Assembly: GCA_036867785.1 (NCBI GenBank)
Contig: CP145409.1
Location: 496,001 to 560,000 of the forward strand
Reading direction: 5' to 3'
DNA: 64,000 nucleotides
Source of the DNA: Plasmodiophora brassicae
Lineage: Eukaryota
Part shown: one piece after another, positions 42,484-52,447 of the stretch
How positions within the stretch are numbered: position 1 is the stretch's first letter
Layout of the letters: each line of letters starts with the position of its first letter
The notes under the pieces: generated by a model
The model's input: only the letters and a program-made list of their open reading frames with translations
What the model was told of the DNA's origin: nothing
The model's database searches: none
Program-made: the position numbers and the translations under genes

Positions 42484-42852
42484 ATGCCGTCCAAGGTCTG
42501 CATCGCGTTCGCTGTACTGCTGGCCATCGTCAGCACGGGACAGGCGTGGTCGCCATACTGGGGCGGCGCCGCAGCGACCGTACCGTTCTATGGCGGGTAC
42601 GGGGCACCCTTTGCCCCCACCGGTGCCGGCGTCTACCCGTACGGCGGCATGGCCGCGTACCCGTCGAACGCCTACATGTCAGGCTATGCGTCCCCGTTCG
42701 GGTACGGGTACCAGTCGTCGTTCGGGACCGGCTTCGACGCCCAATCGTCGACCAGCTTCTCATCCAACTACTTCGGCGGCGGCGGCCTCGCGTTGTCGAA
42801 CAACTTCGCCGGCGGCGGATACTATGGGGCGCCCTACGGCTACATGTACTGA
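42484..42852 (+). CDS. Small secreted Gly/Tyr-rich structural protein (122 aa)
   Basis: Signal peptide MPSKVCIAFAVLLAIVSTGQA, then an almost uncharged G/Y/A/S/F/P-rich body (YGGYGAP, YPYGG, GGGYYGAPYGYMY). Confidence 0.82.
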   Translation: MPSKVCIAFAVLLAIVSTGQAWSPYWGGAAATVPFYGGYGAPFAPTGAGVYPYGGMAAYPSNAYMSGYASPFGYGYQSSFGTGFDAQSSTSFSSNYFGGGGLALSNNFAGGGYYGAPYGYMY

Positions 42853-42983
42853 AGCGTGGCCAGCCCGCCCATCAGCTGTGTGATCAACTTCCAAATGTGT
42901 ACTCCAACTGTGAAATAAAAGCGACGCGAGACGGGATCCGCTCGACCCAGGGGACCTGTGTGCGTATCGGTGGGAGACAGCGG

Positions 42984-45174
42984 CTACAGCGTGTCGTCGT
43001 ACACGCCGGGCCAGTTGTCGGCGAGCGTACACGATCCGTCACTGGCGCACGCCTCCAAGCAATGGTCGATGGTGACGAACTCGTAATCTCGTTCGCGGAA
43101 GTACTGGGCGTACCTGTACGTGCAGGCCATCAGTACTGGTTCGACGCGGTGACGACATCCAGACGTACATATCGAGAATCCCCCGGGTTCCTGCGCGCGT
43201 GTAATGCGCGTCGTGATGCAGAAGGATCGCGGATGACCCGGCAGGGATCGTGGAGTCGAACGATTCGATCGTCCGGTTGAACACGGTGGCAGCGTCACCT
43301 CCGCTCCAATCCAGGGAATCGACATTCCACCTGTCATGCGTTCAGGCGCGTGCAAGCAGAACCGTCCGCACACGACGCGTACGTGACGACGGTATAGTCG
43401 AGCGTGTTGAGGAAATCGGTTCTGGCGCGGTCCAGTTCGCCGAACGGCGGTCGGAAAAGCCACTGGCCCGGGAATGGGAGCCCACCGCATTGCTCGTACC
43501 AGGACTCCCATTGCGATATCTCGTCCTTGATAGCGTCCGGAGACATGCTCAGGAAGCTTCGGTGTGTGAACGAGTCTGTGATGACGCCCCGGGTCAGTTG
43601 GAGGTTCGCCGAGGAACGCAAGGGGGACGTCGTACGGCAGTGGACTGCATGGCCATCACGAAGCATCTCTTGAAGCAGACGGCATTGCTGCTTGTCGAGC
43701 GCGCGTCCTGCCGCCGCCGGTGCCAGAAAGAACGAAGCCCGAATGTTCAGTTGGCGGAGATCCTTCAGCAGGATGCTCGTGGTGACCGGATTCGTTACTG
43801 GAGGAACAATTACCATCGTACAGATTGTGACGACCCGTACGACCCTGTATACCTGGCCCATCGTCGAACTAGGCGTGCACACGTCAGTAACGATGATTGA
43901 GCACCGACTTTGGCTGCTGCTCAGCGTACCGTAAGAACAATCTGCTTCCGGCGACCACACCAGTTGAACGCTCGGACTGGTGCACTCGGATGGGTCCGAC
44001 TGCCCTGCACGAGGTCCCACATCATGAGGCATCGCATACGCGTTGGAATGCGCAGGAGGACGTACCGTCGACGAGGTTTCCTCATGGGGGCACAACGACT
44101 TGTCGTTGCAATGGTCGGATGTGACACCACACCACCCATGCTGTTTGTTGTGCACGTATGACCGTTACCGACTGTGGCACTGCGATCAGATAGCACAGGG
44201 CGCGTACCTGTGAGCAGCACAATGGGACTTTGCATCGTGCACCGCCGAACAATGGTCCACATCGGCCATCGGGACGGGGGTCCGCCGGGCACGTTGCCGA
44301 TTCGGTTTCGCCCAGAACGGGAAGATCGCAGGGCGACAGCGCGTTGCAATGGCTGGGCGTGTCTCCACACCATCCGTTCTACGTACACGTCGGATGTCAG
44401 CGGCCGTGACGAGACACCGGCATCGGGCACGCTTACGACGGAACAGCAGAGACCCGCAGCGCAGGACGCGTACCCGAAACCGGGGCCACATCGCCCATCC
44501 TGTCGAGCGGGGCCCGGGCACTTCACTGCGGGTAGACTGTCATCCTGAGATGGTTCTGGTCGGGGAGGAGACGTCGTTGTTCGCGGCCGCTCCGTCAACG
44601 GTCGATCATGGTCGCGTTGCCCGCCACGTCCAGTAGAAGCGGAGGGTGCCGTCTCGTTTGTGTTCTCAGCCAGATCGATGGAGACATTGTCGGGAGAGCT
44701 GGGACCCGTCGCGTTCCTGTTTCGCGGCATCATCGTTGTTCGTGCTACGTGGGACGCGTTAACGTCGACCCGGCCACTGCTAGGAGCCTCCTCCGCGTGA
44801 CGAGACAGGGCGGCGACGAATTGCGAGAGGCGATCCAGCCCTGTCAGGATCATTCGAGCCAGCGGCTCGGAGCGCCGGAACAGGGCGCTCGGGAGAACCC
44901 GGGGGCACAGCTGGTTCGAGTTGCAATATCGCGACGAGGAGCCACAGAACCCGTTCTGCCCACAAGCGGAATCAGATTCAGGTTGCCAGCGTTGCGAGTG
45001 GCAGTGCTGGACCGATGAGCAGCACTGGCCGACCAGGCACGACGCGTTGTGGAACGTGGACCCGCAGCGCCCATCTGACCTTGGCGGCATCGTGCACACG
45101 CTGCCATTGCTCGCCGCCGCGACACTGAGCACGACCAGGCCCGCCATTAACGTCGCGCCAACGACCGCCCGCAT
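42984..45174 (-). CDS. Secreted chitin deacetylase (CE4/NodB) with three hevein-type CBM18 domains, multi-exon
   Basis: Signal peptide; three DGRCG...C...CCS..G(W/F)CG....C modules; spliced CE4 motifs LTFDDGP, HSFTH, FRPPFG, ILLHHD. Confidence 0.9.
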
Positions 45175-45329
45175 CGTTTCGACCAATGAACGGGTCAGAC
45201 GCGCTGGGGTCTCCTTCCTGGCCCGTGTTCGCCTCCCGTCAGTGCCACTCGTCCCTGATAAATATCTCAGCCGCGTTACACGACAGTCAATGACGACGAC
45301 GACGACGAGCAACAATGCGACGGATTGGT

Positions 45330-51056: not shown

Positions 51057-51184
51057 GAGGCACATGGAAAGTCGCGAGCCTTCAGCGGCAGATACGAATC
51101 CGTCGGCTGCTTATTGATGGCATGCGGATCGCGAACTTATTATGTATTAATAATGGTCAGCCACGCGCGCGATCTGCCGGGTAG

Positions 51185-52054
51185 ATGTCGACACCAGCAG
51201 CAAATAGTTCCAGGGCGCGCGCCGAGACGTTCCTTGATGAAGCCAACGGCCAGCTGGAAGCTCTATATCGCGCCGTCTTCGACCTCGCCCATGTGAATCG
51301 GACGCACTCGACGGCGCCCATCAAATCCGTCATGCGGCGGCGCCTGCATTCGCGCGTCCTCTCCGAAATGGAGAACGAGACATCCTTACACCGATACGAC
51401 ATCGAGGTCACGCAACGCCACGTCCAGGTGCTGACCGGCCGGCCGCGCGAGCAACTATCCCTGCACTTGCGCTTGCGCGGCCAGCAGGGGATCGCCGCCT
51501 CGCGCCATTCTCGCCGAGATCAACGACGACATTGCGGCCGTCCGCGAACAGATCGAACAGCGCCGCCCGTTCGTCGACGGCGACCCAGCGATGCCAACCT
51601 CGTCGGCGACGAAGCGTCGCTGGGCAATGCACGCAGCGTGCCGCCAACGAGCTTCGCACCGGCAACCGGGCGCTGCACGAGCAGGCGACCAGCGGTAATA
51701 TATGAGTGTGCGCCCTAATAGAGCGTTGGGCAGCTAACCCCGCGACAGGATGTGGCCCGGATGCAGGATCAAATCGTGGAGAAGCGGGACGAGATCCGGG
51801 CGGCAGAGACGACGATGTCGGCGTCGTTGAACGCGTTGGCGCCGATGCAGGCGGCGAACGACGCCGAATACGCGGTGTTCGTCCGGGATTGGGATACGAC
51901 GGCCAAGTTGGACGAAAGGCATCGCGCTGTTGCTCCACTGGGAAACCTGGTCCCCCGCGCGCGCCCATCATCGATGAGTCACTGGCGGCCTGAAGCGGCG
52001 TCACCCGTTGACTCAGTCGCTGGCTCCCACCTTCCACGTTGCGTCATACGGTAA
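51185..52054 (+). CDS. Hypothetical coiled-coil protein, structure unresolved (possibly decayed)
   Basis: Helical-looking segments in different frames (FLDEANGQLEALYRAV; MQDQIVEKRDEIRAAE) with intron-like gaps. Confidence 0.4.
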
Positions 52055-52105
52055 TCGTTGTTCGTCGGGTTCAGCTATCAGTCAACCTCCTTCCAACCCC
52101 TATCT

Positions 52106-52447
52106 ATGCAAGCCAACACCGCCTTCATCGTTGCACTAATGGCTGTCTTCGCGGTCGCTGCTGTCGCCCAGTACCCGCCGTACAATACGGGCGGCACCTA
52201 CCCGACCTACAACACGGGCGGCACCTACCCGACGTATAACACGGGCGGCACCTACCCGACGTATAATACGGGTGGCACCTACCCGACCGCCACCAACAAT
52301 AATAATTACAACACGGCCGGCGGGTACTCGTACCCGAACGCCAACAACATTCGCGGGACCGTCCCGCCTAACTACTACAGCGGCGTCGGCAGGGCCTCCA
52401 TTGTCATGCCCGCTCTACTAGCGGTTATTGCCGCCGCCTGGGCCTAA
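52106..52447 (+). CDS. Secreted, probably GPI-anchored Tyr/Thr/Asn/Gly repeat protein (113 aa)
   Basis: Signal peptide MQANTAFIVALMAVFAVAAVA, YP(P/T)YNTGGT x4, C-terminal SGVGRASIVMPALLAVIAAAWA. Confidence 0.82.
   Translation: MQANTAFIVALMAVFAVAAVAQYPPYNTGGTYPTYNTGGTYPTYNTGGTYPTYNTGGTYPTATNNNNYNTAGGYSYPNANNIRGTVPPNYYSGVGRASIVMPALLAVIAAAWA
52172..52288 (+). repeat. 27-bp coding tandem repeat x4 (YPTYNTGGT)
   Basis: tacccgacNtaYaaYacgggYggcacc units differing mostly at third codon positions. Confidence 0.92.

Follow-up and report, generated by a model that had tools for sequence, protein, structure and literature searches.

A window of 64,000 nucleotides of the clubroot pathogen Plasmodiophora brassicae (NCBI GenBank assembly GCA_036867785.1, contig CP145409.1, positions 496,001 to 560,000 of the forward strand) contains a run of eight consecutive genes, b to i, in which six genes with predicted signal peptides (b, c, d, f, g and i) lie within 10 kb. 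The run extends from the ATG of gene b (position 42484 of the window, to which all positions refer) to the final stop-codon base of gene i (52447). The first-pass annotation, made from the sequence alone, had described this segment as a physically linked kit for building or immune-masking a chitosan-plus-protein wall of a resting spore or cyst. The physical linkage of the six secreted-type genes was borne out by the gene models and the signal-peptide heuristic, and five of its six gene descriptions hold, counting b, c, d, the f/i pair and the signal peptide of g, the part that fell being the label "cupin-like" given to g. The gene run is thus a real observation, while the functional wall-kit hypothesis is plausible but unproven. 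Judged by their sequences, the encoded proteins look like components or modifiers of the parasite's own extracellular matrix rather than host-targeted enzymes, and they are of the kind found in walls made of chitin or chitosan plus protein. We favour, at slightly less than an even chance, a reading in which the chitin-containing wall or coat of the parasite itself receives most of these products; the resting-spore wall is the likeliest candidate.

The gene models were obtained by placing assembly contigs from four sequencing runs of four studies (X1, X2, X8 and X11) on positions 41400-53600. The stretch is contained in 20 of the 24 listed runs (10 studies), none of them recorded as RNA; the contigs skip short GT..AG segments, and the assemblies therefore contain spliced RNA. 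Models were built from the contig joints, which gave 14 introns of 50-67 nt in and around the run, all with GT..AG borders. Both the intron size and the guanine-plus-cytosine (GC) content across the window (0.53-0.66) agree with the published P. brassicae genome, reported with 58.5% GC, 60-bp introns, 9,730 genes and 404 genes/Mb (PMC4471660). All six genes lie inside spliced or covering contigs from the runs of the four studies. Contigs of X2 are absent over 43028-45062 and deep over 45470-49132, and neither depth nor gaps were used to rank genes. Database searches were made with single exons or open reading frames (ORFs), which limits some profile scores. Signal peptides and tails of the glycosylphosphatidylinositol (GPI) type were called with an in-house heuristic of hydrophobicity and cleavage. 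The coordinates are collected in Table 1.

Table 1. Genes of the run (b to i) and other features of the window; aa, amino acids.
Feature	Position	Strand	Description
Gene b	42484..42852	+	122-aa Gly/Tyr/Ala/Ser-rich secreted-type protein; from ORF, composition and N-terminal hydrophobic segment
Gene c	42984..45174	-	554 aa, 10 exons; signal peptide, three CBM18 (hevein-type) modules, CE4/NodB domain
Gene c, exons 1-5	45174-45013, 44955-44437, 44378-44208, 44140-44066, 44004-43930	-	contig joints, GT..AG
Gene c, exons 6-10	43868-43853, 43797-43636, 43575-43383, 43330-43169, 43113-42984	-	contig joints, GT..AG
Gene d	45330..47570	-	746 aa, intronless; predicted VWD+C8 at about residues 20-310, then Ser/Thr/Pro and other tracts
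Gene e	47971..48750	-	interrupts the run; Cys-rich, repeated CxxCGG..IC.HG motifs, no signal peptide; intron 48186-48247
Gene f	49115..49306	+	63 aa; signal peptide, about 21 mature residues rich in Asn/Gly/Tyr, C-terminal hydrophobic GPI-like tail
Gene g	49852..51056	+	364-aa orphan; signal peptide in exon 1, His/Asp-rich segment; exons 49852-49911, 49968-50202, 50257-51056
Gene h	51185..52054	+	interrupts the run; 272 aa, Arg-rich, no signal peptide; intron 51695-51748 (contig joint)
Gene i	52106..52447	+	113 aa; signal peptide, about four YNTGGTYPT repeats, Asn/Tyr-rich stretch, GPI-like tail
P0024	26072-26815	+	248 aa; signal-peptide-like start, Gln/Gly-rich low-complexity body, four DCP-type Cys motifs, hydrophobic tail
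Kinase ORF	61760-63106	+	Pkinase, E 2.4e-52; signal-peptide-like segment, then Cys/Trp-containing stretch
Cluap1/IFT38	52500-54100	-	flagellum/centriole gene
CEP76 C-terminal domain	10533-10886	-	flagellum/centriole gene

Gene c had been read as a chitin deacetylase with three CBM18 modules and intact catalytic motifs, and this description was upheld by RNA-backed splicing, three eight-cysteine modules and five NodB motifs. Its introns are removed in contigs of three of the four runs (X1, X8 and X11, not X2). The sixth exon, a micro-exon of 16 nt between introns of 61 and 55 nt, encodes the catalytic FDDGP and was traced from one contig joint with 12 extra letters; an exon of this size is easily missed by automated annotation. 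The catalytic and metal-binding motif set of CE4 enzymes consists of TFDDG, H[ST]xxH, RxPY/F, DxxDW and LxH, and the spliced model contains TFDDG at residue 334, HSFTH at 394, RPPFG at 435, DSLDW at 462 and ILLHH at 493; deacetylase activity on chitin is a prediction. The Pfam profile Polysacc_deac_1 (PF01522) matched the ORF at 43334-44032 with an E-value of 7.2e-9 (36.1 bits, cut-off 23.1) and scored 21.4 and 13.7 bits on single exons. The PDB sequence searches with CE4 pieces gave no match at E<=0.01, another such search gave two matches at chance level, and none of 277 candidate proteins of 407-2000 residues held the NodB exons of gene c.

The three 45-residue modules with eight cysteines each are situated at residues 27-71, 200-244 and 257-301, and a Pro/Arg/Ser-rich linker lies between them and the NodB domain. 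Hevein-type modules are characterized by eight cysteines, a CCS..G.CG core and an aromatic binding platform; the PROSITE-type pattern is strictly matched by module 1 only. Pieces of gene c scored 25.9, 23.3 and 20.7 bits with Chitin_bind_1 (PF00187), below the cut-off of 27.8, because introns split every module and no single exon holds a whole one. In the PDB sequence search with exon 3, all nine weak matches were hevein-type (best E 0.021). The introns at 44141-44207, 44379-44436 and 44956-45012 (minus strand, 57-67 nt) split each module directly after CCS, and this shared position suggests that module and intron were duplicated as a unit. The module core is likewise present in three DNA copies (repeat family D3). 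Regarding known proteins, the architecture of signal peptide, CBM18 and NodB/CE4 is that of the P. brassicae proteins PbChiBD1-6 (Schwelm et al. 2015; Muirhead & Perez-Lopez 2020), for which the same role has been proposed, namely the conversion of the parasite's own chitin to chitosan. These six are reported to carry one or two CBM18 copies, compared with three in the RNA-supported model of gene c. Gene c belongs to a known P. brassicae CE4 family and exceeds the reported number of CBM18 modules by one.

Gene d is spanned unspliced by X11 and X2 contigs, and its assignment comes from structure comparison. Pfam gave no match to the protein, VWD included, at E<=5, and a VWD profile run against PDB sequences gave three matches at E<=1, none meaningful (best 0.2). 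A word-based search recovered 2 relatives among 7,999 scored candidates, and HMMER against 1.84 billion representatives recovered 20 at E<=0.001, of which 14 reached E<=1e-10 and 3 reached E<=1e-30. When 19 relatives were scanned with Pfam, a single one, P0008 (E 3e-26 to gene d), passed the VWD cut-off, with 23.5 against 22.9 bits. In the language-model Atlas, VWD-bearing clusters rank first, at 0.91 and 0.90. An AlphaFold model built on a 14-sequence alignment (predicted local distance difference test, pLDDT, 74.6; predicted template modelling score, pTM, 0.74) gave 41 Foldseek matches at E<=0.001, led by VWF, MUC5AC and MUC2; the matches listed were the D assemblies of VWF, MUC2, MUC5AC, MUC5B and FCGBP, together with Cypridina luciferase and RGMB. 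With VIA-align, the model superposed on VWF D2 and on MUC5AC with Z 18.5 and a root-mean-square deviation of 3.9 over 241-246 residues, and 52 chains reached Z>=8, compared with Z<=2.9 for unrelated chains. Across the D assemblies of VWF, MUC2, MUC5AC and MUC5B (VWD-C8-TIL-E), the VWD and C8 folds align to residues 16-309 of gene d at Z 16-18.5, with about 11-17% identity. According to this model, the N-terminal 310 residues are a VWD+C8 assembly.

As in VWF and the mucins, a CGxC-type motif stands at the end of the VWD domain of gene d and Ser/Thr/Pro-rich sequence follows. After the VWD+C8 assembly, the protein continues with a Ser/Thr/Pro tract, Ala/Val/Met/Pro-rich, Gln-rich and Gly/Met/Gln-rich segments, and a Ser/Thr/Pro/Ala-rich end. 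The two Ser/Thr/Pro/Ala-rich tracts, read from the translation, are about 50-70 residues each, in contrast to the long tandem arrays of gel-forming mucins; the relatives of gene d likewise carry Thr/Pro-rich linkers. "VWD-mucin", the term used in the earlier description, is a fair one. With about 20 relatives, gene d belongs to a small family of protist VWD+C8 proteins that had not been remarked on before.

The two short genes f and i had been described as related GPI-type Tyr/Asn peptides, in keeping with their paralogous tails and with hydrophobic segments at both ends. The hydrophobic 12-mers of f score 3.23 (N-terminal) and 2.66 (C-terminal), those of i 2.97 and 2.71, and small residues just before the hydrophobic tails resemble GPI signals, which points to possible GPI anchoring. 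The C-terminal 21 residues of the two proteins are 62% identical (BLASTP, E 1e-5), and the nine identical residues PALLAVIAA are encoded with five synonymous codon differences, which indicates selection on the peptide and that both ORFs are real and paralogous. In gene i, a 27-nt tandem repeat of 4.3 copies encodes the nine-residue YNTGGTYPT unit, and the whole protein contains 14 tyrosines (12%). In-frame GC content at third codon positions (GC3) is 0.80 for gene f and 0.79 for gene i. Gene f is covered by contigs of X1, X2, X8 and X11, and gene i by those of X2, X8 and X11.

Gene b, covered by X1, X8 and X11 contigs, agrees with its earlier description as a Gly/Tyr-rich protein with a signal peptide: its composition is 20% Gly, 15% Ala, 13% Tyr, 11% Ser, 7% Pro and 7% Phe, and its N-terminus has a strongly hydrophobic segment followed by small residues, as in signal peptides. 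The mature part of about 101 residues is about 26% aromatic, with one acidic and no basic residue when counted from the translation. GC3 is 0.86 in frame, compared with 0.52 and 0.61 in the other frames; the upstream in-frame extension reaches only 0.61, which supports the start codon chosen in the first-pass annotation. Pfam and NCBIfam searches with gene b gave no match.

In gene g, the signal peptide proposed earlier is encoded by exon 1 of the new model. The recorded protein (P0003, 281 aa) begins at the ATG at 50211. An X2 contig matches from 50255 with 233 nt lying upstream, which fits an intron at 50203-50256, and this RNA-contig-supported intron removes the start of P0003. Exons 1 and 2 match the N-terminus of the nearest named relative, hypothetical protein PBRA_004600 of P. 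brassicae (P0005), and the splice between them was taken from the public model and GT..AG signals only. In the e3 model PBRA_004600, the signal-peptide exon is present, but 28 residues that the contig retains are missing. The relatives found are all from P. brassicae (3 matches among 372 candidates). The "cupin-like" label is unsupported: Pfam returned no cupin family at E<=5 (only a chance match at 0.25), NCBIfam gave no match, and PDB sequences gave none at E<=10. The top 30 Atlas clusters are unnamed, mostly actinobacterial hypothetical proteins at 0.93, while cysteine-dioxygenase-type cupins (CDO_I/PCO_ADO) reach only 0.77, with a recognition value below the level usual for known families. 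A single-sequence AlphaFold model was unusable (pLDDT 31.9). About 100-250 nt upstream of the start codon, at 49598-49761, the DNA is G+C-rich and bears a 33-nt tandem repeat (2.2 copies) and a 44-nt direct repeat 96 nt apart.

When the whole window was considered, the signal-peptide heuristic yielded 18 candidates in 64 kb, seven of which fall in the run (the six genes together with one antisense artefact); in the 54 kb outside it, only those at 26072 and 61760 are clear cases. The local enrichment for secretory genes is real, six of eight genes standing against about two clear cases elsewhere. The published secretome comprises 553 secreted proteins among 9,730 genes (PMC4471660), and at this base rate at least six of eight consecutive genes would be secreted with a probability of 8.5e-7, corresponding to 0.008 such runs expected genome-wide.

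A function for proteins like that of gene c has been proposed in the literature. An enrichment of CE4 and CBM18 in plasmodiophorids has been described, the secreted genes with highest expression at spore formation include CE4 genes, binding of the parasite's chitin and its conversion to chitosan were proposed for proteins combining CE4 and CBM18, and chitosan is a weaker elicitor than chitin (PMC4471660). Nine secreted CE4 proteins were reported from P. brassicae, six of them with one or two CBM18 copies, alongside a CBM18-tyrosinase (bioRxiv 2020.12.23.423615). Chitin accounts for 25% of the resting-spore wall, and one chitin deacetylase (CDA) gene rises in weeks 3-6 of infection, when spores form (PMC4815078). 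The idea of chitin-to-chitosan conversion for wall building or immune masking is therefore already in print for this organism (PMC4471660; bioRxiv 2020.12.23.423615).

If the favoured wall reading is correct, the CBM18x3-CE4 protein would dock on nascent chitin through its hevein-type modules and deacetylate it to chitosan, and the VWD+C8 glycoprotein and the uncharged Gly/Tyr-rich and Tyr/Asn-rich proteins would be deposited on or in that polysaccharide. The two Tyr/Asn proteins might first be held at the plasma membrane by their GPI-like tails, after which the Tyr-rich proteins could be insolubilised by oxidative tyrosine cross-linking; a candidate oxidase encoded elsewhere in the genome is the published CBM18-tyrosinase (bioRxiv 2020.12.23.423615). 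The likeliest target structure would be the chitin- and protein-rich resting-spore wall. The data establish the gene models, their transcription, the domain identities, the signal-peptide-like ends, the paralogy of f and i and the local enrichment; secretion itself, GPI anchoring, enzyme activity, location in the wall, cross-linking and any co-regulation are inferred. The fuller version of this proposal, a co-expressed phytomyxid "spore-wall island" in which a chitin-anchored CE4 enzyme with three modules makes chitosan, and VWD+C8, charge-free Gly/Tyr and GPI-tethered Tyr/Asn repeat proteins deposited on it are cross-linked through tyrosine by the chitin-binding tyrosinase, seems to us unlikely as it stands.

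Several properties of the genes themselves weigh against the wall reading. The signal peptides and GPI tails are calls of a home-made heuristic. In gene c, the last aromatic position of the hevein pattern is occupied by His in modules 2 and 3. The autocleavage motif of VWD domains, GDPH, is replaced by GDNH in gene d, as it is in P0001, whereas five relatives (P0007-P0011) keep GDPH. Gel-forming mucins multimerise by disulfide bonds through their TIL and E modules and a cystine knot at the C-terminus; all 15 cysteines of gene d lie at or before residue 324, with none in the last 422 residues, so that these modules are lacking and mucin-style disulfide polymerisation cannot be assumed. The earlier argument that VWD domains polymerise mucins is accordingly not transferable to this protein. 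A protein of the same design as f and i (signal peptide, low complexity and GPI-like tail), P0024, lies 16 kb outside the run, so the class may be common.

Other points concern the run as a whole, and most of them also favour a coincidental neighbourhood, in which secreted genes acting at different times or places have become adjacent through the f/i duplication and a very compact genome. On this account, masking or remodelling of chitin would fall to the CE4 protein, adhesion to the VWD protein and a role in the surface coat to the small peptides. Two unrelated genes without signal peptides, e and h, break the run, and P0024 is again a comparable tail-bearing secreted protein outside it. Upstream regions share no motif: no k-mer exceeded chance, with k=6 matched by 7% of random sets and none found at k=7 or k=8. 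A synteny scan of metagenomes gave 14 stretches fitting a pattern with alignment A2, none of them confirmed, and alignment A1 contained no stretch conserved enough to search with. The step from adjacency to a functional kit drew no support from these tests; the six genes are neighbours, and their regulation as a unit would be hypothetical. Counting f and i as one duplication weakens the enrichment, at least five of seven genes having a probability of 1.1e-5 (0.11 runs expected genome-wide) at the base rate of 553/9,730, of 3.8e-5 (0.37 expected) at the rate of about 709/9,730 implied by PMC11278463, and of 1.8e-4 (1.7 expected) at 10%. Moreover, the published base rate may leave out small ORFs such as f, i and b. 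The run of secreted genes is consequently unusual but not overwhelming. The genome is also dense, at 404 genes/Mb (PMC4471660), and the CE4 paralogues are reported to differ in timing, both among the nine published members (bioRxiv 2020.12.23.423615) and in that another CDA peaks in week 1 of infection (PMC4815078). What speaks against coincidence is that six of eight genes remain far above the base rate of 5.7-7.3% and that an unusual structural character, rich in Tyr/Gly/Asn or in Ser/Thr/Pro, is common to four of the six, which is unexpected for random secreted genes. We consider coincidence somewhat unlikely, although it is the most serious competitor of the wall reading.

Two further explanations assign the products to other sites. 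An adhesion coat of the zoospore or cyst, in which the VWD+C8 glycoprotein and the Tyr-rich GPI-like peptides attach encysting zoospores to root hairs and the CE4 enzyme acts on the thin cyst wall instead of the resting-spore wall, would suit the commonly adhesive nature of VWD-type and mucin-like proteins and the resemblance of Tyr/Pro/Thr-rich repeats to adhesive proteins. Flagellar genes (Cluap1/IFT38 and CEP76) are found in the same window, by adjacency only. In the early interaction of Polymyxa betae, the highly expressed expressed sequence tags include polysaccharide deacetylases and a von Willebrand-domain transcript whose domain type is not stated (PMC5772912); this transcript is the only related literature mention found for the family of gene d, and no P. 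brassicae VWD-type protein was found in the accessible literature on von Willebrand domains and P. brassicae. Chitin, however, is documented for the resting-spore wall (bioRxiv 2020.12.23.423615; PMC4815078), and the CE4 genes named as late point to spore formation (PMC4471660), which leaves an adhesion coat a decidedly improbable account of the run. Less probable still, and in our view very unlikely, is a cluster of host-directed effectors whose products enter the host cell and suppress chitin-triggered immunity or alter host processes. P. brassicae lives inside host cells, so that any secreted protein could in principle reach the host (PMC11278463), and there is a precedent for effector action in the CBM18-only proteins PbChiB2 and PbChiB4, CBM18 proteins having been found to bind spores and chitin oligomers and to suppress activation of mitogen-activated protein kinases (bioRxiv 2020.12.23.423615); the weaker elicitor activity of chitosan compared with chitin (PMC4471660) fits as well. 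Nevertheless, f and i would be retained at the surface of the parasite by their GPI-like tails, and uncharged Gly/Tyr-rich and mucin-like sequences typically occur in structural proteins rather than in soluble effectors. Furthermore, none of the 35 large secreted proteins induced in planta in Table 1 of PMC11278463 clearly matches the run by size and domain, the sole CE4 protein in that table being 895 aa long.

The wall reading has counterparts among known systems. In the yeast ascospore wall, CDA1/CDA2 produce a chitosan layer and DIT1/DIT2 a dityrosine layer, and these genes are adjacent in pairs. The likeness to the run consists in a resistant spore wall, chitosan with a tyrosine-derived cross-linked layer and paired neighbouring genes; in contrast, the yeast layer is made of modified free tyrosine and not of Tyr-rich proteins, and homology is limited to the CE4 domain. 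The Entamoeba cyst wall consists of chitin/chitosan with Cys-rich chitin-binding lectins bearing Ser/Thr-rich spacers and involves a chitin deacetylase, and the Eimeria oocyst wall contains Tyr-rich proteins. Such walls resemble the proposed one in that a fibril, deacetylated chitin or another, is combined with secreted proteins that are lectins, mucin-like or Tyr-rich and cross-linked; they were defined by proteomics and localisation, and no sequence relationship to the P. brassicae proteins is expected. To our knowledge, gene clustering is not a feature of the Entamoeba and Eimeria wall systems. A resting wall of chitosan and cross-linked protein is a known type of system, and physical clustering of its parts in a rhizarian would be new. 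In the accessible P. brassicae literature, no tyrosine-rich or glycine-rich proteins were found, PBRA_004593-004604 were named in no paper found, and no resting-spore wall proteins were named, only the chitin share being given (PMC4815078).

Clubroot persists in soil because of the resting-spore wall. Should the products prove to be wall components, they would provide concrete targets for studies of spore longevity, germination and detection, and the spore-wall island, if true, would be the first inventory, at the molecular level, of the protein share of the wall that enables years-long soil persistence. Independently of any wall role, the corrected models include a three-module CE4 protein with a 16-nt catalytic micro-exon and a signal-peptide start for the PBRA_004600 gene, to which the new protist VWD+C8 family can be added.

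Regarding the two genes that interrupt the run, neither e nor h matched a Pfam family. Gene e contains five DNA repeat copies (family D2), and its protein has about seven repeats of the CxxCGG..IC.HG+ Cys/His motif. In X2, contigs retain the intron of gene e and also extend over intergenic DNA, and X8 has a 26-27-nt insertion in this gene after 48301/48302 relative to the window. The stop of gene h and the start of gene i are 52 nt apart, and X8, X2 and X11 contigs run through both, which indicates that the transcripts overlap or that the pair is co-transcribed.

The rest of the window was surveyed with Pfam using 129 of the 182 upstream ORFs of at least 100 aa (those of at least 118 aa) and all 98 ORFs of at least 100 aa ending after 42400. 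The families identified correspond to transporters, a P-type ATPase, G-alpha, M16 peptidase, polyubiquitin, RasGAP, CK2-beta, tubulin, IFT38/Cluap1, WD40, CoaE, SNF2 and kinase. The statement that the remainder is mostly intracellular therefore applies, with two exceptions, at 26072-26815 and 61760. The former, P0024, gave no Pfam or NCBIfam match; at 61760, the signal-peptide-like start and the Cys/Trp stretch suggest a receptor-like kinase. Flagellum and centriole genes are expected in the window, since the organism has zoospores. Finally, the contigs of X8 and X11 each differ from the window at about 100 single bases over 12.2 kb and share a 2-nt deletion at 42957, in the spacer between genes b and c, whereas X1 and X2 show none of these differences, which are strain differences.

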